From Candidatus Falkowbacteria bacterium (GTDB lineage: Bacteria > Patescibacteriota > Patescibacteriia > Patescibacteriales > GWE2-39-37): 64,000 bases of DNA. Every line of letters begins with the position of its first letter. Within the stretch, counting starts at the first letter, position 1. The notes under the pieces were generated by a model that saw only the letters and a program-made list of their open reading frames with translations, was not told where the DNA came from and did not search any database. The position numbers and the translations under genes are program-made. Shown in pieces: positions 8,348 through 43,613 of this stretch. The stretch covers positions 78,167-142,166 of the forward strand of contig JAAXUA010000001.1 in the NCBI GenBank assembly GCA_013336275.1, read 5' to 3'.

Positions 8348-10492
8348 ATGCAATACCTGTTTTCAATATCAGGGCTGATCAATGGGATTGTCACTTTGAT
8401 AATTTCCATTTTTGTCATTTCCAGCAACCGGAAACGCCCCGTGAACAGGGTATTCTTCCTGATGACCTTGGTTAATTCCATCTGGTCGTTGGCCTATTGG
8501 CGATGGTTGTCCGTCTATGACGACGCCACGCTGGCTTTGTTCTGGGTCAGAGTGCTTTCGATCGGCTCGATGCTGACGTCCATTTTCTATCTTCATTGGG
8601 TGCTGGTGCTGTTAGAGCTCAAACGGAACAAGACCCTGATTTTTTACTATCTGATTTCGATATACTATTTCCTGTTTTCCTTTTCCGATTATTTTGTCAG
8701 CGGTGTCCGGCCGATTATCGGTTTTTCTTTCTGGCCGACGCCAGGCCCGGTTTACAATCTTTATTTCATCACCCACTACCTGATTCTCGTACCTTACGCG
8801 ACTTATCTTTTGTATACTCATTACAGGAGTTCAGTCGGGGTGCGAAAGTCGCAGATCGGCTTCGCCTTTTGGGGTGCCTTGATCGGCTTCACCGGGGGCG
8901 GCACTAATTTCCCGCTGTGGTATGGCATAGAATTGCCGCCTTTCGGCAACTTCCTCGTCCTGATTTATGTGATCTCCTTCGCCATCGCCATACTCAAATT
9001 CCGGCTGATGGGCATCAGGACGATAATGAGCAAGATATATACTTATTTCTTGATCGCTACCTATGCTTACTCGTTTTTCTATCTGGTAATATTCATCGAG
9101 GAGGCGCTGTTCGGCAGCATCTACGAGACGCAATCGCTCATAATCGCCCCGGTTTTCACCTTGATTTTCGCGGTCCTCTTTCTTCCTTTATTTAAGAAGA
9201 TCCAGAAATCCAGCGACGTACTGTTTTTTAAAGGCTATAATTCAAGAAGCATCTTGAAGGACATGTCATTGAGATTGAACAGCGTCATCAACTTGGATCA
9301 GCTTTTGAAAGCCCTAGTTGATGAGTTCAAAAGAGTCTTAGCTACGGAGGATGTAGATGTGTTTATTTTCAAAAGCACCGACATCAGCCGGAAAGCGTGC
9401 CTCTCGATCCTGAAGAACAAGGACAAGACTTTGCCGATGGGCGGCAGCATCTGCAAGCGGCTCCTCAAAGACCGGTCAATCATTATCCGCGACGAACTTA
9501 CCGACGATAACGAATCTTTGATCAAGGATTTGGATAAACTTGGAGCGAAAATAGTCGCGCCGCTCTTGATCCATCAGAAAACTATCGGCTTGGTCGTATT
9601 GGGTGAAAAGATCGAACAAGACGCCTATACCAAAGAAGATGTGGATTTCCTGCAAATCATCAGCTCCCAAGCTGCTGTCGCCATCGAAAATGCCAGGCTT
9701 TATAAAGAGGTCGAGGATTTCAACCAGACGCTCCAAGAGAAAGTGGATAAGCAGACCAAGGAAATCAGGGAAAAAGCCGAGCATCTGAGGAAGCTCATGG
9801 ACATGCGTTCGGAATTCCTGGATATCACTTCGCATCAGCTCCGTACCCCGGTCACGGTCATCAAGGGGGTGCTCTCGATGCTGGAGGAGGGCTCGATACC
9901 GCCAGCTAAACGCAAGGAATTCCTGCGTGGCGCTTTCGAGAAGTCGATCAAGCTAGGAGAAATCATCAACGATATCTTGCGCGCTTCAGAGATGGACAGC
10001 GAGCGGTTCGAACTGAATCTCAAGCCGACCGACCTTAATGAAGTCTTAAAGAAGATAGAGGAAGATAAGTATAGGACCTCGATCCGCAAGAATATCGCCC
10101 TTAAATTCATCCTCCCTAAAAAGCCTTTGCCGCCGATCATGAGCGACGAGAAATATATCGAACAGGCCATCGTGAACCTGATAAACAATTCTTTCCAGTA
10201 TACCACCAAGGGCTCGATAATCGTCTCCGCTGAGGTCTCGGCAGCAGCCGTCGTCATCCGGGTGGCCGATACTGGAATCGGCATTCCCAAGGCCGACATC
10301 CCTAAATTGTTCAGCAAGTTCGCCAGAGCTGACAATGCGGTCCAGGCTTATACGGATGGATCAGGACTCGGATTGTTCATTATCAAGCAGATAGTCGATG
10401 CGACCCCTGGAGCTAAAATAGAGATTGAGAAGACGGAAATCGGCAAGGGAACGACTTTCGCCCTGACCTTGCCGGTCGCCAAAGTAAGTTGA
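8348..10492 (+). CDS. Sensor histidine kinase (multi-TM N-terminal domain, GAF, HisKA, HATPase_c)
   Basis: About 8 TM helices in the first 290 aa. GAF-like block (IVAPLLIHQKTIGLVVLGEK...AVAIENARLY). H-box SHQLRTPVTVIKG, N-box NLINNSFQYT, G1 DTGIGI and G2 GSGLGL. Confidence 0.9.
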   Translation: MQYLFSISGLINGIVTLIISIFVISSNRKRPVNRVFFLMTLVNSIWSLAYWRWLSVYDDATLALFWVRVLSIGSMLTSIFYLHWVLVLLELKRNKTLIFYYLISIYYFLFSFSDYFVSGVRPIIGFSFWPTPGPVYNLYFITHYLILVPYATYLLYTHYRSSVGVRKSQIGFAFWGALIGFTGGGTNFPLWYGIELPPFGNFLVLIYVISFAIAILKFRLMGIRTIMSKIYTYFLIATYAYSFFYLVIFIEEALFGSIYETQSLIIAPVFTLIFAVLFLPLFKKIQKSSDVLFFKGYNSRSILKDMSLRLNSVINLDQLLKALVDEFKRVLATEDVDVFIFKSTDISRKACLSILKNKDKTLPMGGSICKRLLKDRSIIIRDELTDDNESLIKDLDKLGAKIVAPLLIHQKTIGLVVLGEKIEQDAYTKEDVDFLQIISSQAAVAIENARLYKEVEDFNQTLQEKVDKQTKEIREKAEHLRKLMDMRSEFLDITSHQLRTPVTVIKGVLSMLEEGSIPPAKRKEFLRGAFEKSIKLGEIINDILRASEMDSERFELNLKPTDLNEVLKKIEEDKYRTSIRKNIALKFILPKKPLPPIMSDEKYIEQAIVNLINNSFQYTTKGSIIVSAEVSAAAVVIRVADTGIGIPKADIPKLFSKFARADNAVQAYTDGSGLGLFIIKQIVDATPGAKIEIEKTEIGKGTTFALTLPVAKVS

Positions 10493-10521
10493 TTCTTTAA
10501 TTTTCAAGGAGTAGAATATAC

Positions 10522-10908
10522 TTGTATATGGCCACAACTAAACCCAAAATCCTGCTTATTGAAGACGACGATGACCAGCTCATGATGTATGAAGTGTCGC
10601 TGGCAAAAGCCGGGTTCAGCGTATCCAAGGCTCATAATGGCAAGCAAGGAATAATCATGGCTCTCAAGAACAAGCCTGACCTGATAATGCTTGATTTGGT
10701 CTTGCCCGACATGCCTGGCCAGGAAATACTGTCCGAATTGAAGAAATTGCAGGCCGCCAAGGACATCAAAGTCGTGGTTCTGAGCAATCTGAACAAGAAA
10801 GAGGTTATTGAAGAATGCTTCCGCTTGGGAGCGGCTGATTTTCTAATCAAGATGCAGTTCCTACCCCGCGAAGTGGCCGCCAAGGCCCTAGGGTATCTTA
10901 AAAACTAA
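10522..10908 (+). CDS. Single-domain response regulator (REC only, CheY-like)
   Basis: Contains ILLIEDDDD, the phospho-acceptor context LIMLDLVLPD and a conserved K in ADFLIKM. There is no output domain. The start could be TTG 10522 or ATG 10528. Confidence 0.9.
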   Translation: MYMATTKPKILLIEDDDDQLMMYEVSLAKAGFSVSKAHNGKQGIIMALKNKPDLIMLDLVLPDMPGQEILSELKKLQAAKDIKVVVLSNLNKKEVIEECFRLGAADFLIKMQFLPREVAAKALGYLKN

Positions 10909-10932
10909 TCGTTCGTCGGCCCGGAGGGAGCC

Positions 10933-11274
10933 ATGAACAAAAAACATATGAAATACACAATCAAAGCAACGAAAATCAAGTTGACCCCGGAAATCAAGGA
11001 ATATGTCGACAAGAAAATAAATATGCTCGATAAGTACTTGGGCAAGATACAGCCGGTCGCCTGCCATGTCGAAGTCGGACTGCTGGTCGGCGGACAGAAG
11101 ACCGGCGACATCTACCGCACTGAAGTCGTCTTGGAATTGCCTAACTCCATACTGGTGATCGAGAAGAGCGCAGAAGACCTGACAAAGTCGATTGACAAGG
11201 TCAAGGATCATTTGGCCCAGTCGATCACCAAGTACAAGGAAAAGCTGATCGAGCGTCGTCGCAAGACTGCATAG
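10933..11274 (+). CDS. hpf: Ribosome hibernation promoting factor / RaiA family (short form)
   Basis: 113 aa. IKATKIKLTPEIKEYVDKKI...AEDLTKSIDKVKDHLAQSITKYKEK matches the sigma-54 modulation/HPF fold pattern. A GGAGG sits upstream. Confidence 0.85.
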   Translation: MNKKHMKYTIKATKIKLTPEIKEYVDKKINMLDKYLGKIQPVACHVEVGLLVGGQKTGDIYRTEVVLELPNSILVIEKSAEDLTKSIDKVKDHLAQSITKYKEKLIERRRKTA

Positions 11275-19033: not shown

Positions 19034-19954
19034 ATGCTCAAGTACTACTATCGCGAGTCGCTGACCAAGGATTTGGAGACTATCAAAGACTTCCGTCCGG
19101 GAGCCTGGATGGATGCCCGCGCGTTATCAGATGAGGAAATCGAAGGCTTGGCTGAGAAGTTCGACCTTGAGCCTGGACACATCCAGGATGCGCAAGACCC
19201 CTTCGAGGTTCCGCGTTTGGAAATAGAAGAGAACGCAATTTATGTTTTTATGCGCGTTCCGGAAAAGGCAGCCGATGGCATCATCACGGTTCCGTTCATG
19301 GTCGCCTTGGGCGAGCAATTTGTCCTGACGGTCAGCCGCCAGGATCTCAAATTCATGCACCGCTTCCTGTCAGGCAGCCATAAGACTTACACTACCCAGA
19401 AGGTAGAATTTCTGGCCCAGCTCATCTCTGCCATCAACGCGTCGTACAGCCGCCACATCATGGACATTAGCCGCCAGGTTCGCGGCATCCGCGTCCGTCT
19501 GGAAAATATCGAGAACCGCGACATCATCAAATTCGTCGATTATGAGCAGGTGCTGAACGACTTCATTTCAGCCTTGATTCCGCTCTCCGGCATCTTGCGC
19601 GGTCTGCTGCGCAACGACGCCATCAAGCATAACGAAGATAATCATGACCTGTTCGAAGACTTGCTCCTATCGAACGAGCAGCTGATCGAGTCGACCAAAG
19701 CCACCTTAAAAACTATCGTCAATATCCGTGACGCCTATTCGACTATCATGGGGCAGGATTTGAACAGGGTGATCAAGGTCCTGACATCGCTGACTATCAT
19801 AGTCACCGTCCCGACCATGATTTCCAGCTTTTACGGCATGAATGTACAATTGCCTTTCGACAAGTCGCCGTCGGCCTTTTACGGCATCGCGGTCGCGACT
19901 GTCGCAACTGTCGCCACCCTCTGGGTCATTTTCAAAAAGAATCGTTGGCTTTAA
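19034..19954 (+). CDS. corA: CorA-family magnesium/cobalt transporter
   Basis: Two C-terminal TM helices with the YGMN signature (FYGMNVQLPF). Confidence 0.85.
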   Translation: MLKYYYRESLTKDLETIKDFRPGAWMDARALSDEEIEGLAEKFDLEPGHIQDAQDPFEVPRLEIEENAIYVFMRVPEKAADGIITVPFMVALGEQFVLTVSRQDLKFMHRFLSGSHKTYTTQKVEFLAQLISAINASYSRHIMDISRQVRGIRVRLENIENRDIIKFVDYEQVLNDFISALIPLSGILRGLLRNDAIKHNEDNHDLFEDLLLSNEQLIESTKATLKTIVNIRDAYSTIMGQDLNRVIKVLTSLTIIVTVPTMISSFYGMNVQLPFDKSPSAFYGIAVATVATVATLWVIFKKNRWL

Positions 19955-20015: not shown

Positions 20016-21230
20016 CTAGCAATTTTCTGAAAACTTCTGGTGGTCAGCCCAGTGCCTGATCATCTGTTTTTCTGCGGCAGTGGGCAATTCTCCTGTTGCG
20101 GCAGCTTCTGCTGATGCGTTTATCCTGTCAGCTTCATCGAGTTCGAATTCAAGCCATAGGGCAGCTAGGTAGGGAATGATTTTTCCTGCCTCAACCTGCG
20201 TCCTGATTTCGTTGAATTTTTTTGCAAAGGTGCTAGGACCGCCGCGGTAGCTGCGTCCTCGGCTCTTCATGGCCTGTTTGATGTCGGCCAGCTTAATGAC
20301 TTGGGCCATAACGGCGAAGCGGTTGCTCAGGACTAGCGATGTGGTCGAAGCAGGATATTGTTTCACGAGCTCACTGATGCCGCTGTGATGACTTTCGGCC
20401 AGTCGAGCTGCGAGCTCGTACTCGGGGTCATTCTTACCGATGGCGCGGATAATGTTTCCGGTACGCTGCTCGTGGGCGGCCATGGTTTCGGCAAAAGATT
20501 TTTCAGGCGGAAAGCCTTTGGCAGACAGTTCCTTGACCTGTTCAGGGGAGAGGATGAGCTTAACAGGCACAAGATCATTATATTTTCTCTTATCATCCTT
20601 GGCTATGCTATCTTCGACGTACCGGAGCATGGACGGCTGTTCAAGGAAGACTTCGGTTGGGATGTCTAGGTTGTGCCGGTCGGCGTAGAGTCCCAGCATG
20701 CGCTGCTGCTCAGGGAAGGGCATGTTCTTAAAGGCGACTTCCCAGCCTTGCTCATCCAGTCTGTTGTCGGTAACGAAGTTGGGAATTTCCAGTTTGCCCA
20801 AGTCGTGCATGACGGCACCCTTGTCGAGGGGGCGCAGATTGTGATTAGGCAATTCTTCAAGAATCAGATCGATCAGACGGCGCCCGTCGGGCAGAGTTAT
20901 GGCATTTATGGCACGCCGCAATTCTTCGTGGGTATGGATCGAATGATCGAAAGACTCGGGATGAAGCAGCTTGAGTAGGGCAAGCGCTTCATAATCTTTT
21001 TCGTCCAGGAATTCGGCGAGATGCTGCTCTTTATCATAAGCGGCCTTGATCTTTTCGACTTCGTATTGAACCAGGACGTTCAGGCGCAGGTTATTGCCCA
21101 AGACTTCGGCCATGTGGTTGTAGTCGCCTGAGCGTACTAGCTGGTCCAGCTCCTCTCGGTCGCTGAAGCTGGCATTGTTGACTCCGGCGCTGTTTTGATT
21201 GAGTGTGTATGGTTCTTCAGGATTGTGCAT
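20016..21230 (-). CDS. HD-domain phosphohydrolase, HD-GYP-like but with an altered GYP loop
   Basis: HSIHTHE...MHDLGK...AAHEQRTG...SHHSGISELVKQYP...LADIKQAMKSRGRSYRG lines up with the H..HDxGK..H..HHE..GYP..ADxxDAxxSxRxY signature. The N-terminal roughly 130 aa is unrecognised. No obvious SD. Confidence 0.6.
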   Translation of the reverse strand: MHNPEEPYTLNQNSAGVNNASFSDREELDQLVRSGDYNHMAEVLGNNLRLNVLVQYEVEKIKAAYDKEQHLAEFLDEKDYEALALLKLLHPESFDHSIHTHEELRRAINAITLPDGRRLIDLILEELPNHNLRPLDKGAVMHDLGKLEIPNFVTDNRLDEQGWEVAFKNMPFPEQQRMLGLYADRHNLDIPTEVFLEQPSMLRYVEDSIAKDDKRKYNDLVPVKLILSPEQVKELSAKGFPPEKSFAETMAAHEQRTGNIIRAIGKNDPEYELAARLAESHHSGISELVKQYPASTTSLVLSNRFAVMAQVIKLADIKQAMKSRGRSYRGGPSTFAKKFNEIRTQVEAGKIIPYLAALWLEFELDEADRINASAEAAATGELPTAAEKQMIRHWADHQKFSENC

Positions 21231-21262
21231 GTGGGTTTATTTAAGCTAATTGTAGCACAGTT

Positions 21263-21301
21263 CGTAAAAGAATAAAGCCCTTGCAAAAGATGCAAGGGCT
21301 T
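21263..21301 (-). terminator. Rho-independent terminator after the 87-aa gene
   Basis: 11-bp stem aagcccttgca/tgcaagggctt (21275-21301), followed on the minus strand by ttattctttt. Confidence 0.6.
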
Positions 21302-21325
21302 AGCCGGGTGCAGCGCTCAGGCTGC

Positions 21326-21589
21326 CTAAGGAAAGAAATCTTGGTGGAGCTGTTCGATGCCAGCAATGGTTTTGGCAGGGTCTGCCAAGTGGACTTCGAT
21401 CTGTTCAAGCAGTTTCTCGATAATTTCCTGGTCTTGCCGCAGGGAAGCGGCAGCGATGATTTTGGAAATATCATGAGAGGGGTCGTGGGGCAGTTGTGTC
21501 CGCAGGTCATAGCCGTCGGTTACCGCTTTGGCGATGCGAGCTTTAAGCTCTTTGGGTAGCTGATTCAAAAAATCGCTTCCAAGATTCAT
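21326..21589 (-). CDS. Hypothetical 87-aa protein
   Basis: GGGAGG lies 8 nt upstream of the ATG, and the gene has its own promoter and terminator. I recognise no motif. Confidence 0.6.
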   Translation of the reverse strand: MNLGSDFLNQLPKELKARIAKAVTDGYDLRTQLPHDPSHDISKIIAAASLRQDQEIIEKLLEQIEVHLADPAKTIAGIEQLHQDFFP

Positions 21590-21755: not shown

Positions 21756-21784
21756 TTGACAAAAATATGAAAATGTGCTATTTT
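21756..21784 (+). promoter_or_regulatory. Putative sigma70 promoter for the GGDEF gene
   Basis: TTGACA (21756-21761), 17 nt, TATTTT (21779-21784) with an upstream TGc (extended -10). The -35 lies inside ATTGACAAAAAT. The small palindrome TGCAT-tagt-ATGCA sits just downstream. Confidence 0.55.
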
Positions 21785-21867
21785 ATAAGTTATTGCATTA
21801 GTATGCACGTCCATTATCAACTCTAATCTTAGAGAAAAAACACATTCTACATAGAAAGGGAGACGCC

Positions 21868-22542
21868 ATGGAAAGAGAACGCCAAGTTTCGCAAGAAGAT
21901 GAAGTCAAACTCTTAAGACGTAAAGCCTACAAGCTTGAAGGCGAATTGGCCCAAATGGCCCGCTTCCTCGAAGAGGAACAAGAAAGGTTCAGGCAGCTGA
22001 AGCGCGAAAACTTGAGGTTGGCCGAACTCTCCATGTTCAGCCCGATTTGTCCCAACCTCTACAACAAGCGTTTTTTCGATCAGGAAGCACCTAGGCTGCT
22101 TGAGATGGAACGGCGCTTCGGTAACGGCAAGGGCTGTTATTATGGCGTTGTCTATGCCGACCTTAACCACCTCGCGCGGGTCAATGCCGAATACGGCCAT
22201 GATGGCGGTAATCGGGCGATCTGTTCGATCGGTAAAACTCTGATGCAGACCGTGCGTCGCAGCGATTTGGCTATCCACATCCACGGAGATGAGTTCGTCG
22301 TCCTGTTTTTCGCTTCCAGCTGGCGCGAGTGTTACAAGACTTATGCCCGCATTTCGCGCGCGCTCAGAAGAGTGCCCGTCACCTTCCATGACGGGTTGAT
22401 CGATCACGTCAGTGCCATGACCGCCTTAGCGATGCAGAAAATCGACGACGATATCAGCTTGGCTGATGTGTGCCACAAGGCCGATATGCGTATGTTGCGC
22501 AAGAAGGAGGTTCGCGACAAGGGTGAGGAAAAAAAGCCTTAA
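21868..22542 (+). CDS. Coiled-coil + GGDEF-fold nucleotide cyclase with variant active site (HGDEF)
   Basis: The N-terminal 55 aa are heptad-like and charged. YADLNHLARVNAEYGHDGGNRAI...RRSDLAIHIHGDEFVVLF...ADMRMLRKKE aligns with DxDxFKxxNDxxGHxxGD...RxxD-x5-GGDEF...ADxAxYxAK. GGGAG lies upstream. Confidence 0.75.
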   Translation: MERERQVSQEDEVKLLRRKAYKLEGELAQMARFLEEEQERFRQLKRENLRLAELSMFSPICPNLYNKRFFDQEAPRLLEMERRFGNGKGCYYGVVYADLNHLARVNAEYGHDGGNRAICSIGKTLMQTVRRSDLAIHIHGDEFVVLFFASSWRECYKTYARISRALRRVPVTFHDGLIDHVSAMTALAMQKIDDDISLADVCHKADMRMLRKKEVRDKGEEKKP

Positions 22543-22563: not shown

Positions 22564-22597
22564 GGGGCCCATCTTAAGTGATGGGCCCCTTTAATTT
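22564..22597 (+). terminator. Rho-independent terminator after the GGDEF gene
   Basis: Hairpin ggggcccatc-ttaagt-gatgggcccc followed by tttaattt. Confidence 0.7.
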
Positions 22598-22775: not shown

Positions 22776-24857
22776 ATGCCAAACATCTTCCAATCCATGT
22801 TCCTGTCTGGCGGACGGGCCAAGGTCTGGCGAATTTTTTCGCTGGTCATTCTGCTCCTGATCGTCGGTCTCCTGATCGTCGGCGGCGGTTATTACAACCG
22901 CGGTGCCGATTGGATCGCTTCCAAAACCGGCCAAGCCGTCAAACTGCCAACTGTCAAAGAAACTCCTTTCCGTCTCGGATTGGACCTTTTGGGCGGCACC
23001 CAGCTGATCTATCAAGCTGACGTCTCGGCAGTTCCGGGCAAGGATCAGCCATCAGCCGTCGAAGGCGTCCGCGACGTCATCGAGCGCCGCGTCAATGTTT
23101 TCGGCGTCGCCGAACCGAACGTCCAGACCAATCTCTCTGCCGGAAAATATTACGTCATGGTGGAACTGGCCGGCATCAAAGACACCGCCCAGGCGATCAA
23201 GATGATCGGCGAGACCCCGCTCCTCGAGTTCAAGGAGCAGAATACGGAAAAGCGCCAATTGACAGCCGAAGAGAAGAAAGGCATGGACGCTTTCAATAAG
23301 TCAGCTAGCAAGAAGGCTGAAGAAGTTTTGGGCAAGGTCCTGTCGAACGGCGATTTCGCCGCTTTGGCCAACCAATACAGCGACGACCCGGCCAATGTCG
23401 ATTCTTCCGGGAACAAGAAGGGCGGAGAGCTTGGCTGGATCAGCGAACAGGATAATCCTGAGCTGTTCAAGCTGGCCCAGAAGGTGCCGGTCGGCAAGAC
23501 CTCGACCGAGCTGTCCAAGACCAGCATCGGTTATCAGCTGATCAAGAACGAGGAGAAGCGCACCAAGACTGACCCGTTCAATAACCAGCCGCAAATGGAG
23601 GTCAAGGCATCGCATTTATTGATCTGCTATAAGGATGTTTCAGGCTGCGAAAGCGGTTTGGATAAGGAAGCGGCCAAGGCCAAGATCGAACAGCTCAAGT
23701 CCAAGGCCAATAAAGATAATTTTGCCCAGTTGGTCAAAGAGAATTCGACCGAACCGGGCGCACGTGACCGGGCTGGCGACTTAGGCTGGTTCGGACGCGG
23801 CAAGATGGTCAAGGTTTTTGAAGATGCCGCTTTCTCCCAGAAGGTCGGAACCATAGAAGGTCCGATCGAATCCGAGTTCGGCTATCATCTTATATATAAG
23901 CAAGCGGAGAGGAAAATCGACGAGTATCGCATCCGCAATATCTTGATCAAGACCCAGAGCGAGTCCGATATCGTCGGAGACCAGAGCGACTGGAAGAATA
24001 CCGAGCTGACCGGCAAGTACATGAAGCGCGCTTCGGTTGAATTCGACCCGAATGATAATTCGCCCACCGTTGCGCTGGAATTCGACCAGCAAGGCGGAGA
24101 ACTGTTCGCCGCTATCACCAAGCGCAATGTCGGCAAACGGGTCGCCATTTTCTTGGACGGCCTCTCGATCAGCGAGCCGACCGTCAATGAAGAGATCACC
24201 GGCGGCAAAGCCGTCATCAGCGGCAAATTCGACATCAAGGAAGCCAAGCTTTTGTCCCAGCGCTTGAACGCCGGCGCGTTGCCGGTGCCGATCACTTTGG
24301 TCAATCAGCAGTCGGTCGGCGCCACCTTGGGTCAGCAGTCGGTTAACGCCAGCTTTCGTGCAGGCTTGATTGGCTTCGCCCTCGTCGCTTTGTTCATGAT
24401 TTTGTTTTATCGTTTTCCAGGCGTGCTGGCTGTCGGCGCCCTGGCTATCTATAGCGTTCTAGTATTGGCCATCTTCAAGCTTTGGCCGGTCACAGTCACC
24501 TTGTCCGGCATTGCCGGCTTCATCATGTCGATCGGTATGGCCGTCGACGCCAATGTTTTGATCTTCGCCCGCTTGAAAGAAGAATTGGCATTCGGCAAGC
24601 CTTTCGGCGCCGCCTTGGAAGAAGCCTTCCGCCGGGCCTGGCCGTCGATCCGCGACTCTAACGCCTCGACCCTAATCACCTGCTTCATCCTGATCCAATT
24701 CTCGACTAGCGTGGTCAAGGGCTTCGCCATTACCCTGGCAATCGGTGTCCTAGTGTCGATGTTCACGGCCATCTTCATCACTCGAAATTTCTTAAAGCTC
24801 ATTCCCGAATCTTGGCTTGAAAAGCGGCCGTGGTTAGTGGGCGTAAATAAGCATTAA
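22776..24857 (+). CDS. secD: Protein translocase subunit SecD with two inserted parvulin-type PPIase domains
   Basis: The SecD N-terminal TM and P1 head (GLDLLGGTQLIY...GETPLLEFKE) and the P1 base plus 6 TM (VAIFLDGLSISEPTV...GALPVPITLV...MAVDANVLIFARLKEE) are present. They are interrupted at aa 156-395 by parvulin-like sequence (FAALANQYSDDP...GGELGWI...IGYQLIK, then KASHLLI...AGDLGWFGRG...EFGYHLIYK). Confidence 0.9.
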   Translation: MPNIFQSMFLSGGRAKVWRIFSLVILLLIVGLLIVGGGYYNRGADWIASKTGQAVKLPTVKETPFRLGLDLLGGTQLIYQADVSAVPGKDQPSAVEGVRDVIERRVNVFGVAEPNVQTNLSAGKYYVMVELAGIKDTAQAIKMIGETPLLEFKEQNTEKRQLTAEEKKGMDAFNKSASKKAEEVLGKVLSNGDFAALANQYSDDPANVDSSGNKKGGELGWISEQDNPELFKLAQKVPVGKTSTELSKTSIGYQLIKNEEKRTKTDPFNNQPQMEVKASHLLICYKDVSGCESGLDKEAAKAKIEQLKSKANKDNFAQLVKENSTEPGARDRAGDLGWFGRGKMVKVFEDAAFSQKVGTIEGPIESEFGYHLIYKQAERKIDEYRIRNILIKTQSESDIVGDQSDWKNTELTGKYMKRASVEFDPNDNSPTVALEFDQQGGELFAAITKRNVGKRVAIFLDGLSISEPTVNEEITGGKAVISGKFDIKEAKLLSQRLNAGALPVPITLVNQQSVGATLGQQSVNASFRAGLIGFALVALFMILFYRFPGVLAVGALAIYSVLVLAIFKLWPVTVTLSGIAGFIMSIGMAVDANVLIFARLKEELAFGKPFGAALEEAFRRAWPSIRDSNASTLITCFILIQFSTSVVKGFAITLAIGVLVSMFTAIFITRNFLKLIPESWLEKRPWLVGVNKH

Positions 24858-35040: not shown

Positions 35041-36186
35041 ATGAAGCGAAGCTGGTTGAATAGGGAGTTGGCAGGCAATTTAGCCTCCGCGGCCCAGACC
35101 GCGGCTTATCCGGAGTCGGTAAGATTCCGGCTGGCCGGCATCAAGGTCCCGGAGATGGTCAGGAGCGGCAAGAATGTCGCTTCATTGATGATGAGCAGTC
35201 CCATGGTCGCTGACGAATGGCAGCGCAATGTCGAGCCTCGGCTGGCGCAGCTCTTGGCGTCAGCGATCGCCGGACAGAAGGGGGAATTGTTGATCGACGG
35301 TCTGGCGGTCCAGAATATCGAGACGGTCTGGCCGCGCTTGCTGCTCGCTTGCGGAGCCGGCACTAGCCGCTTCTGGGCCAGTTCGATGCAGCCTGGTTTG
35401 GAGCAGTTCGCCCTTTCGGCTAAACAGTCCGGATTGTGGCATCAGGAAATCGTGTGCGGCGAAGCCTCCGGTTTCCTCCCGCAGCTGCGGATGATCAATA
35501 AGAGTTCCAAGCTGGTCGTCACGAGCTTCCCCCATTACCCGAGCGGCGCCATCATGCTTCCGGCGGCTTGGCGTGAGCTCTGCGCTTACTGCGAAGAATC
35601 CGGAACCAGGCTGGTGAATTACAACCGTTCGGCGGATCCTCAATCGAAAATCAGCCGTTTCCATAAGGTGGCGGCTGGGTTCGAGAACCTCTCCTGGCTC
35701 GAGATCTTCGATCCTTGCACCATGCTTGGGAAGAGCGAAGGCTGGTCATTGGTCTCGGTGATAGGTTCGGATGATTTCGTGGCCGACTTCAGGATGGTCG
35801 GCGGCAGCGGCAGGGAGCTGTTTTTGCCGGTCGCGGCCGGAGTCCTGGCCGCGTTCAGGGAAGGATTGGTCGAGAGTTCGGCGGTCATCCTGAGCAAACG
35901 CTCGGCTTTATCCGATCTATGCAAAGTCCTATCCCTACGAGGACTCAGGCTGCTGGTGCAGCCTAAATCCGGCTATCATGCCCTTTGGCAAGCGCCCAAG
36001 ACGCTCGATGGCGAAGATCTCGGCGGCGACGGCAAGGCATTCAATGAAGCGATGAGGCAACGCTACTCAGTCAGCGGCTTGCCGCTTGCAGGCACCATCG
36101 CCTACAGTCCGCTGGATATGCCCCATGGCAACGAGTGGCTAGGTGATCTGGCTGAAAGATTGGGCGGCTCGGTGATCGGATACTGA
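35041..36186 (+). CDS. Hypothetical protein, distantly aminotransferase-fold-like (degenerate)
   Basis: It has a strong SD and its own terminator. LVVTSFPHYPSGAIM and CTMLGKSEGWSLVS loosely mirror the PNNPTG and SFSKxxGxxGxRxG blocks of class I aminotransferases. By eye it is more GC-rich than its neighbours. Confidence 0.45.
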   Translation: MKRSWLNRELAGNLASAAQTAAYPESVRFRLAGIKVPEMVRSGKNVASLMMSSPMVADEWQRNVEPRLAQLLASAIAGQKGELLIDGLAVQNIETVWPRLLLACGAGTSRFWASSMQPGLEQFALSAKQSGLWHQEIVCGEASGFLPQLRMINKSSKLVVTSFPHYPSGAIMLPAAWRELCAYCEESGTRLVNYNRSADPQSKISRFHKVAAGFENLSWLEIFDPCTMLGKSEGWSLVSVIGSDDFVADFRMVGGSGRELFLPVAAGVLAAFREGLVESSAVILSKRSALSDLCKVLSLRGLRLLVQPKSGYHALWQAPKTLDGEDLGGDGKAFNEAMRQRYSVSGLPLAGTIAYSPLDMPHGNEWLGDLAERLGGSVIGY

Positions 36187-36276: not shown

Positions 36277-36330
36277 TTACCTTTGTGCGAGGATCATTCG
36301 ATAACCACAACAAAACAAAGGAGGTTTTTC

Positions 36331-36729
36331 GTGAAGCGTGTAATTGAGGGCAGAGTGACGACTGCGATAAGCATCAAGGAAATCGTTTTCCGAGGCGAGC
36401 ACCTGCGGATCAACGTGGCCAATACCCGCGAGGCGGCGGCCGCATCCGCCAGGAGATCAGGTTCGAACACCTTGTTCGACAGCTTCGGCGCTCTTGGCAA
36501 GACGATCCTGATCGCCGACAATGCCCAGGCCGGACTCATCGCTGCTTTTTTCGGTCTGACATCAGAAAACATCTTGAACGACTCCGAACGCTTCGGCTTC
36601 CTGCGATCGGCCAAGACCAACCAGACCTGTTATGCCGTTCCTTCCCAAGCCGCGAACTTGTTCCATCAGGTCAGCGGCATTTCCGACACCCCGGTCGAAT
36701 TGCCCATACTTGAGGCAGTCAACCAATAA
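36331..36729 (+). CDS. Hypothetical 132-aa protein (GTG start)
   Basis: AAAGGAGG lies 7 nt upstream of GTG 36331. The track's longer ORF starts at 36283 without an SD. I recognise no motif. Confidence 0.6.
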   Translation: MKRVIEGRVTTAISIKEIVFRGEHLRINVANTREAAAASARRSGSNTLFDSFGALGKTILIADNAQAGLIAAFFGLTSENILNDSERFGFLRSAKTNQTCYAVPSQAANLFHQVSGISDTPVELPILEAVNQ

Positions 36730-36755
36730 CAGATAAGATTCCGATCCTCGCCAAA

Positions 36756-36786
36756 AAGGCCATCAATGTGATGGCCTTATTTTTTG
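36756..36786 (+). terminator. Rho-independent terminator
   Basis: Hairpin aaggccatc-aatgt-gatggcctt followed by attttttg. Confidence 0.8.
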
Positions 36787-36815
36787 TTCAATATTAGGGT
36801 ATATTATCCAATATA

Positions 36816-36844
36816 TTGACATTTTTAGCAAATAGGAGTATAAT
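36816..36844 (+). promoter_or_regulatory. Consensus sigma70 promoter
   Basis: TTGACA, exactly 17 nt, TATAAT. Both hexamers are perfect. Confidence 0.65.
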
Positions 36845-36972
36845 ATCAATATAATCAAGAATCGTTCCTTGAGAGACTAAGCACCAAAACATAGCGCCTT
36901 TTACCAAAAAAGAAATTGTGTTCTGTTGCCTAATCAGAAAAGCAGCCAACCCTGCCGAAGGAGGTGAACATC

Positions 36973-37164
36973 ATGAGACAGCTACTGATCGAAGCATTGT
37001 TCGGAATGACAGCCGTAATGGTTATCTCCTCGCTTATTCTGGATTTGCCCCCGTATCTTTGCAAGAAATTCAAAGAAGCCTGGGCAGTCAGGAAAGCAGC
37101 AGCCGTCACGGAGTCTAACCCCGCCATCCAACCCCAGCCCGTCACCATCCCAGTGAACTCCTAA
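36973..37164 (+). CDS. Hypothetical small membrane protein (63 aa)
   Basis: GAAGGAGG lies 8 nt upstream of ATG 36973. It has one TM helix (FGMTAVMVISSLILDL) followed by a Pro/Gln-rich tail, and its own terminator. Confidence 0.55.
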   Translation: MRQLLIEALFGMTAVMVISSLILDLPPYLCKKFKEAWAVRKAAAVTESNPAIQPQPVTIPVNS

Positions 37165-37180
37165 TGCCAGCCACTGCAGT

Positions 37181-37212
37181 GCCCGTCGCTTATGCGAGCG
37201 GGCGCTTTTTTT
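37181..37212 (+). terminator. Rho-independent terminator
   Basis: Hairpin gcccgtcgc-ttat-gcgagcgggc (9 bp, one bulge) followed by gcT7. Confidence 0.8.
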
Positions 37213-37230
37213 ATCCGTCAGTCCGAAGTG

Positions 37231-37259
37231 TTGACAATATCCTCGAGTTGTGATATAAA
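37231..37259 (+). promoter_or_regulatory. Putative sigma70 promoter
   Basis: TTGACA, 17 nt, TATAAA. Confidence 0.55.
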
Positions 37260-37375
37260 TAATTTTTGACTCAAACGAAAAAACGGCCATTAATGGGCGT
37301 TTTTATCGTTCGGGAACTCGAAAGAAGGGAGGTGAGTCAAGCTGTTCTTTTTTGTTTCTCTGTTCTTTAACTTCA

Positions 37376-37795
37376 ATGGAGGTGTGTGTGACGAAGGATG
37401 AATCATGGCTGTCGAGAATCAAGCGGTATAACGAAGAAGACCTGGCTCGTCGCGCAGACGAGCTGGCAAATAACCGAAGGAGGTTGCTTAACATGCAGTT
37501 TGAACATTTTTCCCAGCTGTTGCGTCTCGGAGACGCGGCTCAGCGGGAGCGTGCTATCGAGGGTCTGTTGTCTATCAAGGGAAGAAGAGTGGTTAACCTT
37601 TTGGCTGAATGGCTGCACAAAGAGACTGATGACCGCTTGCGGGAAAAGGTTCTCGATGTGATCGAGGAATGCATCGAGCTGGATCTGATCTGTGACTCGT
37701 TCACCAAGATGCGGGCCGACGAACTGCCAGTATCCGCCTTGGCGATCTATGCCACGGACATCGCGAACAACTACACACATGCCTTAGCCGCCTAG
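37376..37795 (+). CDS. Hypothetical protein with HEAT/PBS-lyase-like repeat
   Basis: ERAIEGLLSIKGRRVVNLLAEWLHKETDDRLREKVLDVIEE resembles HEAT-like repeats. The start is ambiguous: TTG 37352, ATG 37376, or GTG 37388 just after a GGAGG. Confidence 0.5.
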   Translation: MEVCVTKDESWLSRIKRYNEEDLARRADELANNRRRLLNMQFEHFSQLLRLGDAAQRERAIEGLLSIKGRRVVNLLAEWLHKETDDRLREKVLDVIEECIELDLICDSFTKMRADELPVSALAIYATDIANNYTHALAA

Positions 37796-37812
37796 ACGCG
37801 GCATGAATCTTG

Positions 37813-37844
37813 CGGAGCCGAACTATCGGCTCCGTCTTTTTTTT
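37813..37844 (+). terminator. Rho-independent terminator
   Basis: Hairpin cggagccg-aactat-cggctccg followed by tcT8. Confidence 0.8.
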
Positions 37845-37846
37845 GC

Positions 37847-37877
37847 AAAAAAAAGCCGACCAGATGGGTTGGTCGGC
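37847..37877 (-). terminator. Rho-independent terminator for the minus-strand Cys-rich gene
   Basis: Hairpin gccgacc...ggtcggc, with an A8 run on the + strand that reads as U8 on the minus transcript. Confidence 0.7.
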
Positions 37878-37891
37878 GATTAGAGGCAGGG

Positions 37892-38152
37892 TTAGGCTAG
37901 TTGGGGTTGACGTTGGGGCTTGAATTGGAGTTCACGGTAGTGGACGAAGGTGGAGCCGATTTTGGCGGCGGCAAGAGCGTGGGGAATGCAGAAGGAGCAG
38001 ATGCCGTTGGTGACCGGTAATTCGGTCTTGGTTCTCAGATTGCAGCCTGAGAAGCTGTTGCAGTAGATGCAATCGTTTGCGTTGTGGCCGTCGTGACAGC
38101 CGTAAACGCGCTTGCAATGCTGGCATTCCCTGATGAGAGTCATATCTGACAT
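37892..38152 (-). CDS. Hypothetical Cys-rich small protein (86 aa, 8 Cys, probable zinc-binding)
   Basis: AAGGAGG lies 6 nt upstream of the ATG. Cys pattern: CxxC-x4-C-x8-CxxC-x5-C-x15-CxxC. Confidence 0.6.
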   Translation of the reverse strand: MSDMTLIRECQHCKRVYGCHDGHNANDCIYCNSFSGCNLRTKTELPVTNGICSFCIPHALAAAKIGSTFVHYRELQFKPQRQPQLA

Positions 38153-38211
38153 GAAACACCTCCTTGAAGGTGATTTAGCCTAAACCCATGCAATGAGCAC
38201 TAGATAATTAT

Positions 38212-38240
38212 ATTATAGCACATTTGATAAAATTTGTAAA
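38212..38240 (-). promoter_or_regulatory. Putative sigma70 promoter for the Cys-rich gene
   Basis: On the minus strand: TTTACA, 17 nt, TATAAT with an upstream TGc (extended -10). Confidence 0.6.
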
Positions 38241-38310
38241 AGGCGGCGGCAAATTATTGAAAATATACGCATTTTTTACCTTTATTTTAGCCAAAAACAA
38301 ATATAGTACA

Positions 38311-38335
38311 TAGCACTCTTGACACTTGAGTGCTA
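38311..38335. promoter_or_regulatory. CIRCE operator (HrcA binding site)
   Basis: TAGCACTC-N9-GAGTGCTA matches the CIRCE consensus TTAGCACTC-N9-GAGTGCTAA in 16 of 18 arm positions. The 9-nt spacer contains the TTGACA -35 box. Confidence 0.85.
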
Positions 38336-38348
38336 GCTGCGGTACAAT
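38319..38348 (+). promoter_or_regulatory. Putative sigma70 promoter of hrcA-grpE, overlapped by CIRCE
   Basis: TTGACA (38319-38324), 18 nt, TACAAT (38343-38348). Confidence 0.6.
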
Positions 38349-38368
38349 CAGCAATGGAAGGATATTTT

Positions 38369-39049
38369 ATGAATAAAAGGACCGAACAAATACTCGAAAC
38401 CTTAGTCAAGGAACACATCAAGACCGGACAACCCGTGGGGTCAGAAGCTTTGGTGTCCAAGTACAAGCTCGGTGTTTCCTCGGCTACGGTCAGGAACGAG
38501 ATGGCGGAGCTGGAGAATACCGGATACATAGCGCAGCCGCACACCTCGGCCGGACGCATCCCGACGGAGAAGGCCTATCGCCATTGTTTGGAAAGTCTTC
38601 GCGAGAAGAAAGTCAGCGAGATCGAGGCGGAGATATTATCCAAGCTCTTGGAGCAGCGCGACGAGGCCGGATTGAAACAGGTGGCCAAGGCATTGGCGCA
38701 AGCCAGCAACGCTGCCGTCTTCTGGGCCTTCCACCGCAACAACCTGTTCTATACCGGCGTGGCCAACTTCCTGTCGCAGCCGGAGTTCCGCGAGTCGGGC
38801 CTGATCTACGATGTCTCGGCCATCATCGATAGCGTCGACGAGATCATCGATCATATTTTTAACGAGATCCCTTTTGAGCCGACAGTGCTTGTCGGCACCG
38901 ATAATCCCTTCAGTCCGCTGTGTTCGACTATCATCGTCAAATACCGCATCGGCGATCATGCCGGACTTTTCGGTATCTTGGGGCCGATGCGCATGAATTA
39001 TGAGCGCAACCTATCTTTGGTCAGATTTATCAAACAACATTTAGCATAA
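38369..39049 (+). CDS. hrcA: Heat-inducible transcription repressor HrcA, compact form (226 aa)
   Basis: N-terminal wHTH (PVGSEALVSKYKLGVSSATVRNEMAELENTGYIAQPHTSAGRIPT) and the C-terminal signature GILGPMRMNYERNLSLV. The start is at ATG 38369, after GGAAGGA. Confidence 0.85.
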   Translation: MNKRTEQILETLVKEHIKTGQPVGSEALVSKYKLGVSSATVRNEMAELENTGYIAQPHTSAGRIPTEKAYRHCLESLREKKVSEIEAEILSKLLEQRDEAGLKQVAKALAQASNAAVFWAFHRNNLFYTGVANFLSQPEFRESGLIYDVSAIIDSVDEIIDHIFNEIPFEPTVLVGTDNPFSPLCSTIIVKYRIGDHAGLFGILGPMRMNYERNLSLVRFIKQHLA

Positions 39050-39052
39050 CCT

Positions 39053-39568
39053 ATGGAAACGAAAAAGCACGATAAAGAGGAAACTAAGAAAAGGCACGAC
39101 CACAAACGGTGCGAGCCTTGCGAAACCGAGCTCAATGAACTGGAACATCGCTACAAGACGGCGTTAGCCGATTATCAGAATCTTCTGAAACAGACGGCCA
39201 AGGACAAGCACGAGTTCGCCAAATACGCTAACGAGCAGCTGATACATGAATTCCTGCCGGTCTATGATCACCTGAAATTATCGCTTGCCCATATCGACGC
39301 CGCCGCAGAGAAGAGCAACTGGCTGGTCGGAGTGCAGTATGTCATCAAGCAGTTCCAGGAAGTCTTGGCCAAGCACGGCGTGACCGAAATCAAGACGATT
39401 GGCGAGAAGTTCGACCATAACCTGATGGAGGCGGTCGGAACCGAGCCGGCAGAAACGGACGAGCAGGATGACGTGGTCGCCAAAGAAATCAAGGCCGGCT
39501 ACCTGCTCCATGGCAAAGTCATCACCCCGGCACGGGTCGTAATTTACGAAAAAGCCGTCCAGGAATAG
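39053..39568 (+). CDS. grpE: Nucleotide exchange factor GrpE
   Basis: Coiled-coil region followed by FDHNLMEAV...GYLLHGKVITPARV. Confidence 0.9.
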   Translation: METKKHDKEETKKRHDHKRCEPCETELNELEHRYKTALADYQNLLKQTAKDKHEFAKYANEQLIHEFLPVYDHLKLSLAHIDAAAEKSNWLVGVQYVIKQFQEVLAKHGVTEIKTIGEKFDHNLMEAVGTEPAETDEQDDVVAKEIKAGYLLHGKVITPARVVIYEKAVQE

Positions 39569-39664
39569 TTTAACCATTAGTTAATAAGCGAGTTTTAGAA
39601 TAACACCATTAATTTTTAACCGGACCGCCAACCGCCGAGCGCGGGAAACGGACCACAAAAATCT

Positions 39665-40096
39665 ATGGCAATCATCAAATGGGCTCCGATGCTCGAGCCG
39701 TTCGAGGAGATGGACAAGATGTTTAACGATTTCCTGCCTAGCACCCGTTCGATGGGCGGTGGCTTCATGCCGGCGGTCGACATGTATGAGGATAAGGACA
39801 ATATCATAGTCGAGACGCAGCTGGCCGGCATCGACCCGGATCAGGTCAGCATCTCGATCGAGAACGACATCTTGTCGATCAAGGGGGAGAGCGAGAAGAA
39901 GAGCGAGATCGACGAGAAGAATTACTACCGCAAGGAAATCCGCCGCGGCAGCTTCTACCGTTCGATTCCGCTGCCGACCCACGTTTCCGGCGAGAAGGCT
40001 TCGGCCGAAGCCGATGGCGGGGTTCTTAAAATCACCATTCCCAAGGCCCCAGAAGCCAAGCCAAGGAATATCAAGATCCAGACCAAGAAGAAATAA
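39665..40096 (+). CDS. Small heat-shock protein, Hsp20/alpha-crystallin family
   Basis: The alpha-crystallin core is present: PAVDMYEDKDNIIVETQLAGI...RRGSFYRSIPLP...A.ADGGVLKITIPK. Confidence 0.9.
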   Translation: MAIIKWAPMLEPFEEMDKMFNDFLPSTRSMGGGFMPAVDMYEDKDNIIVETQLAGIDPDQVSISIENDILSIKGESEKKSEIDEKNYYRKEIRRGSFYRSIPLPTHVSGEKASAEADGGVLKITIPKAPEAKPRNIKIQTKKK

Positions 40097-40150
40097 TCGC
40101 CGGTTTCCGTTTGGCCGGAGATGTTCCGGCCAAGAGTTAAGCCGATAATT

Positions 40151-40738
40151 ATGAACATCGAATACGAAGCGACTTTTTTTCCGGTCGAGAAGGACGAGGT
40201 GCGCGAGCGTCTGCGCCTGGCCGGAGCCGAATTGGTCAGGCCGGAGTTCATGCAAAAGCGGGTCACCTTCAAGTTTCCTGAGGGGCACGATATCTACGGC
40301 GGCTGGCTGCGCGTGCGCGACGAGGGTGATAAGGTGACGATGAGCCTTAAGGTCGTCGATGGCGATACGATAACCGACCAGAAGGAAATCTGTCTGACGG
40401 TAGACAGTTTTGGCGAAGCGGAGAAGTTCCTACTGACCGTCGGCTGCACGAAGAAGGCTTACCAGGAGACACGGCGCGAGCTTTGGCGGCTGGATGGCGT
40501 CGAGATCACTATCGATGAGTGGCCGTTCATCGAGCCTTTGGTCGAAGTCGAGGGCGAATCGGAGACGGCCGTGCGCCACGTCAGCGAGCAGCTCGGTTTC
40601 GATTACAGCAAGGCGCTGTTCTGCGCTGTCGGCTATCTGTACAAGCTGAAATACGGCGTCGCCTTGGATGAAATCAATAACCGCACGCCGAAGATAACTT
40701 TTGAAATGGAAAATCCGTTCGTCAAAAACCGTTCTTAA
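40151..40738 (+). CDS. CYTH-domain protein (triphosphate tunnel metalloenzyme / class IV adenylyl cyclase-like)
   Basis: About 195 aa with the N-terminal strand NIEYEATF (an ExExK-like motif with K replaced by T). Alternating charged beta-strands follow (LRVRDEGDKVTMSLK, EITIDEWPF...VEVE), typical of the CYTH tunnel fold. I chose ATG 40151 because the track start at 40121 lies inside a hairpin. Confidence 0.6.
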   Translation: MNIEYEATFFPVEKDEVRERLRLAGAELVRPEFMQKRVTFKFPEGHDIYGGWLRVRDEGDKVTMSLKVVDGDTITDQKEICLTVDSFGEAEKFLLTVGCTKKAYQETRRELWRLDGVEITIDEWPFIEPLVEVEGESETAVRHVSEQLGFDYSKALFCAVGYLYKLKYGVALDEINNRTPKITFEMENPFVKNRS

Positions 40739-40759
40739 TCCGAACAACCCCGCTCGACA

Positions 40760-40817
40760 TTCAGCATTATTTTTTCTGCTTAGACGAGTACGTATGCGCA
40801 GAAAAAATAATGCTGAA
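40760..40817. repeat. Perfect 20-bp inverted repeat with 18-nt spacer, 52 nt upstream of dnaK
   Basis: TTCAGCATTATTTTTTCTGC (40760-40779) and GCAGAAAAAATAATGCTGAA (40798-40817) are exact reverse complements. Confidence 0.85.
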
Positions 40818-40869
40818 CATCAAGCTAGCTCAGAGCAAAAAATAATTTTAAATAATTAGTAAAAACAAT

Positions 40870-42759: not shown

Positions 42760-42770
42760 TATTCTCATAG

Positions 42771-42796
42771 ATTGCCCGAACTCGCGTTCGGGCAAT
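42771..42796 (+). terminator. Hairpin after dnaK (possible terminator, no U-tract)
   Basis: 11-bp stem attgcccgaac-tcgc-gttcgggcaat. Confidence 0.45.
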
Positions 42797-42927
42797 CGCT
42801 TGAGAAGGTTAGTTGTTCATTCCATACCAAAAGGAGCTTCCATGAAAACGACAGCCAACAGGGCGGTAGTGGAATTCATTCTTGTTTCTGATTAAGATGT
42901 CAAACTCTCAGCCAAGGAGGTCAGCAC

Positions 42928-43612: not shown

Positions 43613-43613
43613 G

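Follow-up and report, generated by a model that had tools for sequence, protein, structure and literature searches.

Here we describe a GGDEF protein of Candidatus Falkowbacteria bacterium in which asparagine occupies the position of the aspartate that reads the nucleotide base in canonical diguanylate cyclases, and in which the GG(D/E)EF signature has become HGDEF. Its gene lies in a stretch of 64,000 nucleotides (contig JAAXUA010000001.1 of assembly GCA_013336275.1, positions 78,167 to 142,166 of the forward strand), called the window from here on, and the features discussed are located in table 1. Judged from the sequences, the combination is a conserved and selected variant, neither chance nor a sequencing oddity, because the residues involved are conserved in orthologues from independent assemblies. 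The reading that we favour, with a probability of about 0.4, is that the protein would be an active, stalk-dimerised and product-inhibited GGDEF cyclase, possibly with a relaxed choice of purine, paired with an HD-GYP-like hydrolase. Loosened purine selection is suggested by the amide at the reader position, by the Asp kept as third residue of the motif and by Thr being the sole natural substitute of the Asn; a guanine-containing product is favoured along with it.

The protein is identical to the NCBI entry 'GGDEF domain-containing protein [Candidatus Falkowbacteria bacterium]', found on a 338-kb contig, and belongs to the GGDEF superfamily according to Pfam PF00990 (E = 3e-20, 73.1 bits, cut-off 23.8) and TIGR00254 (67 bits, cut-off 37.4). 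Aligned by phmmer with TM1788, a Thermotoga maritima cyclase of solved structure (4urs/4urg), it runs without gaps across D98...N106 and the motif region, pairing GHDGGN ('yghdggn') with GHLSGD ('yghlsgd'), RRSDLAIHIHGDEF with RRSDVVARYGGDEF, and 'rrsdlaihihgdef' with 'rrsdvvaryggdef'. N115 thus falls at the position of PleD D344 and H139 at the first Gly of GG(D/E)EF. A sequence-only reading of this DNA had proposed just these two replacements, Asn for the Asp of GHxxGD and HGDEF for GG(D/E)EF, together with an intact RxxD inhibitory site (I-site) five residues before the signature. All three were borne out: the motif coordinates are exact, the alignment to solved diguanylate cyclases did not move the Asn elsewhere or reveal a canonical Asp at the specificity position, and RRSD lies opposite RRSD of TM1788, separated from H139 by the five residues L-A-I-H-I as in canonical RxxD-x5-GGDEF.

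Most of the remaining active site is that of a cyclase. In a 40-sequence alignment reaching down to about 20% identity D98, N106, G110, H111, G114, G140, E142 and K213 are invariant, and D141, K213 and R216 are invariant among the orthologues. The C-terminal phosphate-binding segment ADMRMLRKKEVR nearly matches ADMRMYKAKEMK of the active TM1788, which has the same K213-R216 spacing, one residue less than the canonical KxxGR. Compared with PleD-type cyclases, the metal ligands (D327, E370), the general base (E371) and the phosphate-binding Lys and Arg (K442, R446) are all present, and the departures lie at the GG of motif positions 1-2 (H139-G140), at the D344 reader (N115; the equivalent of N335, N106, is present) and at the Lys of position 332 (A103). 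R130 and D133 of the I-site are invariant both in the orthologues and in the 40-sequence alignment. R161, nearly invariant in alignments A2/A3, lies 18 residues past F143, the spacing that we take to separate R390 from F372 in PleD, so that we count the I-site as complete (R130, D133, R161), with the RxxD five residues ahead of the motif that feedback-inhibited GGDEF proteins carry. In contrast to degenerate receptors of the PopA/PelD type, D98, D141 and E142 are kept alongside this site, and such a set of conserved residues is the pattern expected of an enzyme and not of a decayed receptor domain.

An exhaustive phmmer search of 1.84 billion cluster representatives gave 75,595 matches at E up to 0.001. 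Only the protein's own cluster lay below 1e-30, the next match having 30% identity, which marks an isolated clade. Five orthologues share 55-70% identity with the protein, and none of them has Asp at the reader position. Four read GH[DA]GGN with H-x-HGDEF, and in the fifth (P0004) both positions have shifted jointly, to GHDGGT with H-V-SGDEF. Asn and HGDEF also occur together in four representatives of about 30% identity (P0013, P0016, P0031 and P0057), which have the same size and the same layout of stalk and GGDEF domain, and at locus L010 in a metagenome-assembled genome (MAG) of Patescibacteria; at least one of the small proteins at about 30% identity comes from Patescibacteria as well. 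The position of R68, the Arg that reaches across the dimer, is Asn in all four. Throughout this clade of the Candidate Phyla Radiation (CPR) the reader Asn is never Asp, despite only 25-30% identity between branches, and is replaced by Thr alone; among sampled GGDEF domains at large Asp is found there in about 90%. The third motif residue is Asp in all 14 of the Asn/His sequences, the locus scans among them having used the HGDEF pattern. For gene pairs with unsaturated synonymous sites, the ratio of nonsynonymous to synonymous substitution rates is about 0.11-0.15, a rough figure since these sites are saturated in most pairs.

The sequence-only reading had also asked how often Asn and HGDEF co-occur in homologues. 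The pair holds in four of the five orthologues and in the distant relatives just named, but elsewhere HGDEF usually comes with Asp, and an obligate coupling of His to Asn was rejected. Outside the CPR the pair occurs in CHASE-GGDEF proteins of Neptunomonas qingdaonensis, Neptunomonas sp. and a Chromatiales MAG, as well as in a family of small proteins (L114 and L162), whereas the CHASE-GGDEF relatives of Amphritea, Marinobacterium and Motiliproteus combine Asp with HGDEF. Scanning metagenomes with the HGDEF pattern as seed gave 47 Asp/His against 3 Asn/His sequences, and there are eight cases of an Asn reader with GGDEF or GGEEF. Being skewed to the query or to the search pattern, these samples speak for recurrence and not for frequencies. 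HGDEF is widespread, usually with the canonical Asp, and the His is not diagnostic. The CHASE-GGDEF proteins of Oceanospirillales and Chromatiales at L060 4831-6426, L081, L045, L054, L056 and L070 all carry HGDEF. Those of Oceanospirillales read P-N-x-N instead of P-N-R-R and so are devoid of the cross-dimer Arg, and the Chromatiales protein reads P-N-R-M. In a wider sample this Arg is kept in 5 of 19 Asp/HGDEF domains and in 216 of 276 Asp/GGDEF domains.

The architecture is that of a stalk joined to a GGDEF domain, with no sensor domain, so that regulation must come through transcription, product inhibition or a partner. The AlphaFold model, built from the 40-sequence alignment with a mean predicted local distance difference test (pLDDT) score of 93.7, has a single helix over residues 9-55 followed by the canonical GGDEF fold. 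Heptads run regularly through the helix (a positions L16, L23, M30, E37, L44 and L51; d positions A20, L27, L34, F41 and N48), which fits a parallel dimeric coiled coil. In Foldseek the SiaD-SiaC complex 7E6G ranked first, followed by TM1788, the Idiomarina cyclase, GacA, PleD and the coiled-coil DgcB (6TTR); the top matches (SiaD, TM1788, the Idiomarina cyclase, GacA and PleD) are active cyclases, and the alignment with SiaD covered about 210 columns, the stalk included.

Published work on GGDEF enzymes bears on our case (PMC6456294). In GacA, Ser348 reads the Watson-Crick edge of the base and Asn339 its sugar edge, and restoring Asp gives a pure diguanylate cyclase. Where the reader is Ser or Thr, the third motif residue has to be Asp; an Arg reaching across the dimer favours guanine and, in Hypr enzymes, skews the product to cyclic di-GMP (c-di-GMP); and the residue in fourth place of the motif acts as general base for the partner chain. 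The Asp found third in the Asn/His sequences fits the Goldilocks rule that the same work gives for non-Asp readers.

According to the reading that we favour, two chains would be held parallel by the N-terminal stalk, as the model and the heptads suggest. Each GGDEF domain would bind one purine nucleoside triphosphate with Mg through D98, D141, K213 and R216, and E142 of the partner chain would deprotonate the 3'-OH, a scheme drawn from the conserved residues and the published mechanism. The product would then occupy the I-site and shut the enzyme off. With the N115 amide substituting for the base-reading carboxylate, and with H139 standing below the base where the first Gly would be, a looser selection of purines than in canonical diguanylate cyclases would be expected, in a Hypr-like manner, because an amide both accepts and donates a hydrogen bond. 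The product would contain guanine, as c-di-GMP and/or 3',3'-cGAMP (cyclic GMP-AMP), since the protein has not lost R68 and has an I-site of c-di-GMP type, and since an RxxR motif is present in the neighbouring HD-GYP-like protein. This divergently encoded, fast-evolving protein would degrade the product, giving a minimal make-and-break module in the reduced genome of Candidatus Falkowbacteria. Control would be exerted through the conserved promoter and a palindrome, probably at the level of transcription, and/or through a partner protein.

The closest parallel in base reading is with the Hypr GGDEF enzymes (GacA/GSU1658, GacB, Bd0367), which make 3',3'-cGAMP. They share the fold, have an uncharged, hydrogen-bonding reader instead of Asp, and carry the obligatory third-position Asp and the intact RxxD I-site also found in our protein; the orthologue P0004 even has the Hypr residue Thr, with SGDEF. 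By the definition of the family, nonetheless, our protein is not a Hypr GGDEF. Its reader is Asn and not Ser/Thr (position 348 of GacA), Thr being confined to P0004; HGDEF falls outside the accepted [G/A/S]G[D/E]E[F/Y]; and the cross-dimer residue R68 is still Arg, where GacA has Y304 and the Hypr criterion is a residue other than Arg. Furthermore, it has no Rec or GAF input domain, and no cGAMP (GEMM-Ib) riboswitch was found within the window.

In design the protein resembles SiaD of Pseudomonas aeruginosa (7E6G) and DgcB of Caulobacter (6TTR), both small, sensor-less and made of a coiled-coil stalk and a GGDEF domain. SiaD is its best structural match as well as its best NCBIfam match, and is activated by a small partner, SiaC; our gene likewise adjoins the gene of a small conserved protein. 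However, identity with SiaD is 23%, the score of 68 bits compares with an equivalog cut-off of 290 (NF038266), SiaD keeps the Asp and the GG of canonical cyclases, and the 87-residue neighbour has no detectable similarity to SiaC. The protein is therefore not a SiaD equivalog, and the resemblance is one of architecture only. For the first motif position, the active cyclases VCA0965 of Vibrio cholerae (AGDEF) and ECA3270 of Pectobacterium (SGDEF) show that substitution is tolerated. In saturation mutagenesis of VCA0965 activity was retained only with Gly, Ala, Met and His, and the A284H change, which creates HGDEF, raised c-di-GMP about 3-fold (PMC3974145). Both enzymes differ from ours in keeping the canonical Asp reader, and the HGDEF of ours is natural and conserved, whereas that of VCA0965 was engineered.

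In all five orthologous loci the GGDEF gene lies between CorA and a SecD-PpiC fusion, with two divergent genes upstream, of about 88 and 401-416 amino acids. The longer one, of 404 amino acids in the window, is a plausible candidate for the cognate phosphodiesterase on grounds of motif and profile. All five members of the family match Pfam HD, the window protein with a score of 19.5, under the gathering cut-off of 22, and two of the five match HD_5 at about 1e-3. A profile of the five sequences placed V-cGAP3 (5z7c, E = 4.2e-4) first among Protein Data Bank entries, with PA4781 (4r8z) at 0.05 and PmGH (4mcw) at 0.32, two of the four matches below the top being unrelated proteins. An hhalign comparison with the HD segment of V-cGAP3 (HDxGK...IP...EW) gave a probability of 95.8% over 41 columns. 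H96, H142-D143-x-G-K146, H253, H281-H282 and D316, among them the HD-superfamily metal ligands, are invariant in five orthologues, with about 30% identity between sub-clades, as are R, Y and R of the base-recognition motif R326-S-Y-R329. The latter is of the guanine-recognising Rxx(K/R) type, Rxx(Q/N) being the mark of cGAMP-specific enzymes (bioRxiv 10.1101/600031).

The family shares HDxGK...IP...EW, the H/HH/D ligand series and R-x-Y-R with HD-GYP enzymes (5Z7C, 4R8Z, 4MCW), but its GYP motif is degenerate (QYP or EHP), reading HHSGISELVKQYP in the window protein and HHNYD...EHP in orthologues, and an insertion of about 70-100 residues separates the HD segment from the His that follows. Searched with a profile, 5.8 billion proteins yielded only its three orthologues, so that the family is confined to the clade and no deeper alignment is possible. 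A structure model of the 404-residue protein was discarded (three-sequence alignment, mean pLDDT 56), its Foldseek matches to formins and ABC transporters (E > 0.3) being meaningless. The 87-residue protein encoded between the two genes is restricted to the clade, has a conserved N-terminus and gave no significant match in Pfam or NCBIfam; a small open reading frame (ORF) beside a distant relative (L007) is unrelated to it. Between the two divergent genes there is a terminator-like hairpin (21275-21301, minus strand), and they may accordingly be transcribed separately or linked by read-through. Identity of CorA across loci is 83-92% and that of the GGDEF protein 55-69%, against 27-40% between sub-clades for the HD-like and small proteins. 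The interval 20016-21589 appears in this respect as a fast-evolving islet in a conserved housekeeping block, compared with the adjacent CorA gene (19034-19954).

Several points weigh against the reading that we favour. The canonical cyclase GSU3350 remained a pure diguanylate cyclase when its Asp was changed to Ser (PMC6456294), so that losing the Asp need not alter the product, and base selectivity cannot be read from sequence. Some genera have Asn and others Asp in their CHASE-GGDEF proteins, a family in which the Asn might be near-neutral. Two further deviations, absent from the sequence-only reading, lie in the active-site region. Among 452 non-redundant sampled GGDEF domains about 94% have Lys at the position of PleD K332, and each of the five orthologues has Lys or Arg there; Ala is found in the window protein alone, with Arg next to it at 104, which may or may not compensate, and the window copy could be weakened or dead. 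The residue before the motif is Arg in 201 of 214 sampled domains and His, as in H137, in 10. The HD-GYP assignment rests on weak sequence statistics. The link through gene order is weak too: the shared neighbourhood may reflect only close relatedness, since its housekeeping flanks are conserved as well and the whole CorA-to-SecDF block is syntenic in these close relatives, and no HD-like gene adjoins that of the distant Asn/HGDEF relatives. Lastly, neither a PilZ, EAL, DAC or second GGDEF gene nor any riboswitch family at gathering score was found within the window.

Part of this evidence fits an ordinary diguanylate cyclase in which N115 and H139 are tolerated, GTP is the sole cellular substrate and c-di-GMP the sole product, an alternative that is possible, if on the unlikely side. 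The remaining catalytic residues and the c-di-GMP-type I-site are retained; so is R68, an Arg that skews the product even of Hypr enzymes to c-di-GMP. The RxxR motif of the HD-GYP-like neighbour is of the guanine type, the engineered HGDEF enzyme produces c-di-GMP, natural HGDEF is mostly coupled to Asp, and the alternation of Asn and Asp among CHASE-GGDEF orthologues and the behaviour of the GSU3350 mutant point the same way. What argues for more than tolerance is that a single base change would turn the Asn into Asp, yet Asp is absent from the CPR clade across branches of 25-30% identity, and that the only alternative residue is the Thr of Hypr enzymes. There is also an analogy with GTPases, in which replacement by Asn of the guanine-reading Asp of the NKxD motif strongly weakens GTP binding.

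That the protein is inactive and would act by way of its I-site as a c-di-GMP receptor or scaffold, or else regulate the HD-GYP-like enzyme encoded next to it, seems unlikely to us. Deviations of the window copy at three conserved positions of the active-site region (G-to-H139, R-to-H137 and K-to-A103) would agree with such a role, as would the fully intact I-site and the lack of a sensor domain, and HD-GYP proteins are known to contact GGDEF proteins. However, D98, D141, E142, N106, K213 and R216 are invariant across the clade, unlike in the receptor GGDEFs PopA, PelD, FimX and LapD, in which acidic motif residues have been lost. Moreover, A103 is confined to the window protein, orthologues having Lys or Arg, and HGDEF is compatible with catalysis (PMC3974145). 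The sequence-only reading had left altered specificity and an inactive or receptor role side by side; it is supported in part, the conserved catalytic residues narrowing the choice by speaking against inactivity.

Very improbable is an adenine-preferring enzyme making mainly cyclic di-AMP (c-di-AMP) for a genome that may be devoid of a DAC-domain cyclase: an Asn amide can, on chemical grounds, form a bidentate pair with adenine (N1 and N6), c-di-AMP can be a product of Hypr GGDEFs in vitro (Hallberg 2016, as quoted by a citing paper) and no DAC-domain gene was found within the window, but that search covered 64 kb of the genome and no more, guanine is indicated alike by the I-site, by R68 and by RxxR in the neighbour, and no ydaO/c-di-AMP riboswitch was found within the window.

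GGDEF enzymes are the most abundant cyclic-dinucleotide synthases, and to our knowledge Asp to Ser/Thr, in the Hypr enzymes, is the one natural change at the reader position known to alter the product. If Asn alters it too, this would be a second conserved natural variant of the reader and would extend the rules by which the messenger is predicted from sequence. Because a motif had to read [G/A/S]G[D/E]E[F/Y] to pass as active in published Hypr surveys, Asn/HGDEF proteins would have been excluded as 'inactive'; the variant is coupled to the very motif that such bioinformatic filters discard. It is a rather doubtful proposition, which we nevertheless state, that these proteins form an overlooked GGDEF subclass besides the Ser/Thr Hypr enzymes, making a purine dinucleotide other than c-di-GMP (cGAMP, c-di-AMP or another hybrid). 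Were it true, the subclass would consist of small stalk-GGDEF proteins in Patescibacteria and recur in the CHASE-GGDEF proteins of Neptunomonas and Chromatiales, and the Falkowbacteria enzyme with its diverged HD-GYP-like enzyme would be a self-contained second-messenger module in an ultra-reduced genome. It would also be among the few signalling modules described in CPR bacteria, whose regulation is almost unknown; our literature search on D344N, and on GGDEF proteins in CPR or Patescibacteria, returned nothing relevant. Should the protein be a plain diguanylate cyclase, it would show, as a result of lesser weight, that a GGDEF protein can be called active without the first Gly and without the Asp. 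The question lends itself to a direct test, since the CHASE-GGDEF protein of N. qingdaonensis (L060 4831-6426), from the cultured strain CGMCC 1.10971, has the same pair of residues.

Table 1. Location of the GGDEF gene, its residues of interest and the neighbouring elements (positions in the window)
Feature	Position	Strand	Basis
HD-GYP-like metal-dependent phosphohydrolase, 404 aa (NCBI hypothetical protein HGA34_00425)	20016..21230	-	profiles, conserved residues
87-aa protein, clade-restricted, conserved N-terminus M(I)NLG..LN.LPEE.K.RIA	21326..21589	-	same position in 5/5 loci
Sigma-70-type promoter of GGDEF gene: TTGACA, 17 nt, TG-n-TATTTT	21756..21784	+	promoter scan
Palindrome CTCTAAtcTTAGAG (= CTCTAAnnTTAGAG), between promoter and start codon	21821..21834	+	invariant columns across loci
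Ribosome-binding site GAAAGGGAG of GGDEF gene	21854-21862	+	
Stalk-GGDEF gene, 224-aa product	21868..22542	+	ORF list, Pfam match, AlphaFold model (mean pLDDT 93.7)
N-terminal 47-residue helix (residues 9-55), predicted parallel coiled-coil dimerisation stalk	21892..22032	+	DSSP on model; heptads
GGDEF (nucleotidyl cyclase palm) domain, residues 63-214	22054..22509	+	Pfam envelope; Foldseek E ~1e-11 to 1e-13 (TM1788, PleD, GacA, others)
R68, cross-dimer Arg position (Idiomarina R537, GacA Y304), stacks on partner's base	22069..22071	+	TM1788 alignment, PMC6456294
D98, metal-binding Asp (PleD D327)	22159..22161	+	invariant in all alignments
A103, at PleD K332 position	22174..22176	+	gap-free alignment D98...N106
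N106, sugar-edge base and ribose contact (PleD N335, GacA N339)	22183..22185	+	invariant; role from PMC6456294
GHDGGN segment	22195-22212	+	coordinates checked
N115, Asn at Watson-Crick-edge base-reading position (PleD D344, GacA S348)	22210..22212	+	alignments
RRSD, RxxD primary I-site for allosteric product inhibition	22255..22266	+	opposite RRSD of TM1788
H137, replaces Arg preceding GG(D/E)EF (PleD R366)	22276..22278	+	sampled domains
HGDEF signature: H139 for first Gly; D141 metal ligand, E142 general base	22282..22296	+	alignments, PMC6456294
R161, likely equivalent of PleD R390 (second half of I-site)	22348..22350	+	18 residues past motif Phe F143
K213...R216, phosphate-binding pair (PleD K442, R446)	22504..22515	+	TM1788 alignment, orthologues
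Intrinsic terminator 3' of GGDEF gene	22564..22589	+	10-bp stem, 8 G-C pairs, then T-run

R68 is the second basic residue of N-K-R and lies opposite 'nrr' of TM1788. The promoter of the GGDEF gene has 10 of 12 matches plus an extended -10 in the promoter scan, and TATTGACAAAA and TGCTAT are invariant in the five orthologous loci. The palindrome CTCTAAnnTTAGAG occurs once in the window (0.09 expected). It is found at the same place in three other loci (L004 7940-7953, L005 7931-7944 and L006 3974-3987), and with one mismatch in L001, and may be an operator or an element of the 5' untranslated region.

One of the orthologous records (L001/L009, contig CAYUCS010000001.1, 772 kb) is titled 'uncultured Gammaproteobacteria bacterium'. 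Gene by gene the locus runs parallel to the Falkowbacteria window, CorA being about 91% identical, and given this collinearity the taxonomic label looks wrong. Pfam gave nothing at E up to 1e-4 for several sizeable ORFs of the window, at 47251-49005, at 35041-36186 and within 36283-45439 (584, 381, 235 amino acids and others). One other signalling module, and no more, was seen in the window, at 8348-11274, where a histidine kinase (GAF-HisKA-HATPase), a receiver domain standing alone and the ribosome hibernation factor S30AE follow one another. The SecD gene downstream (22776-24857) has two PpiC-type (parvulin) rotamase domains inserted in the periplasmic part of its product, a fusion present in all related loci (L001-L006). 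The gene of the distant Asn/HGDEF relative P0057 also adjoins SecF (L007 1946-3950), an arrangement that may be a remnant of an ancestral CPR neighbourhood.

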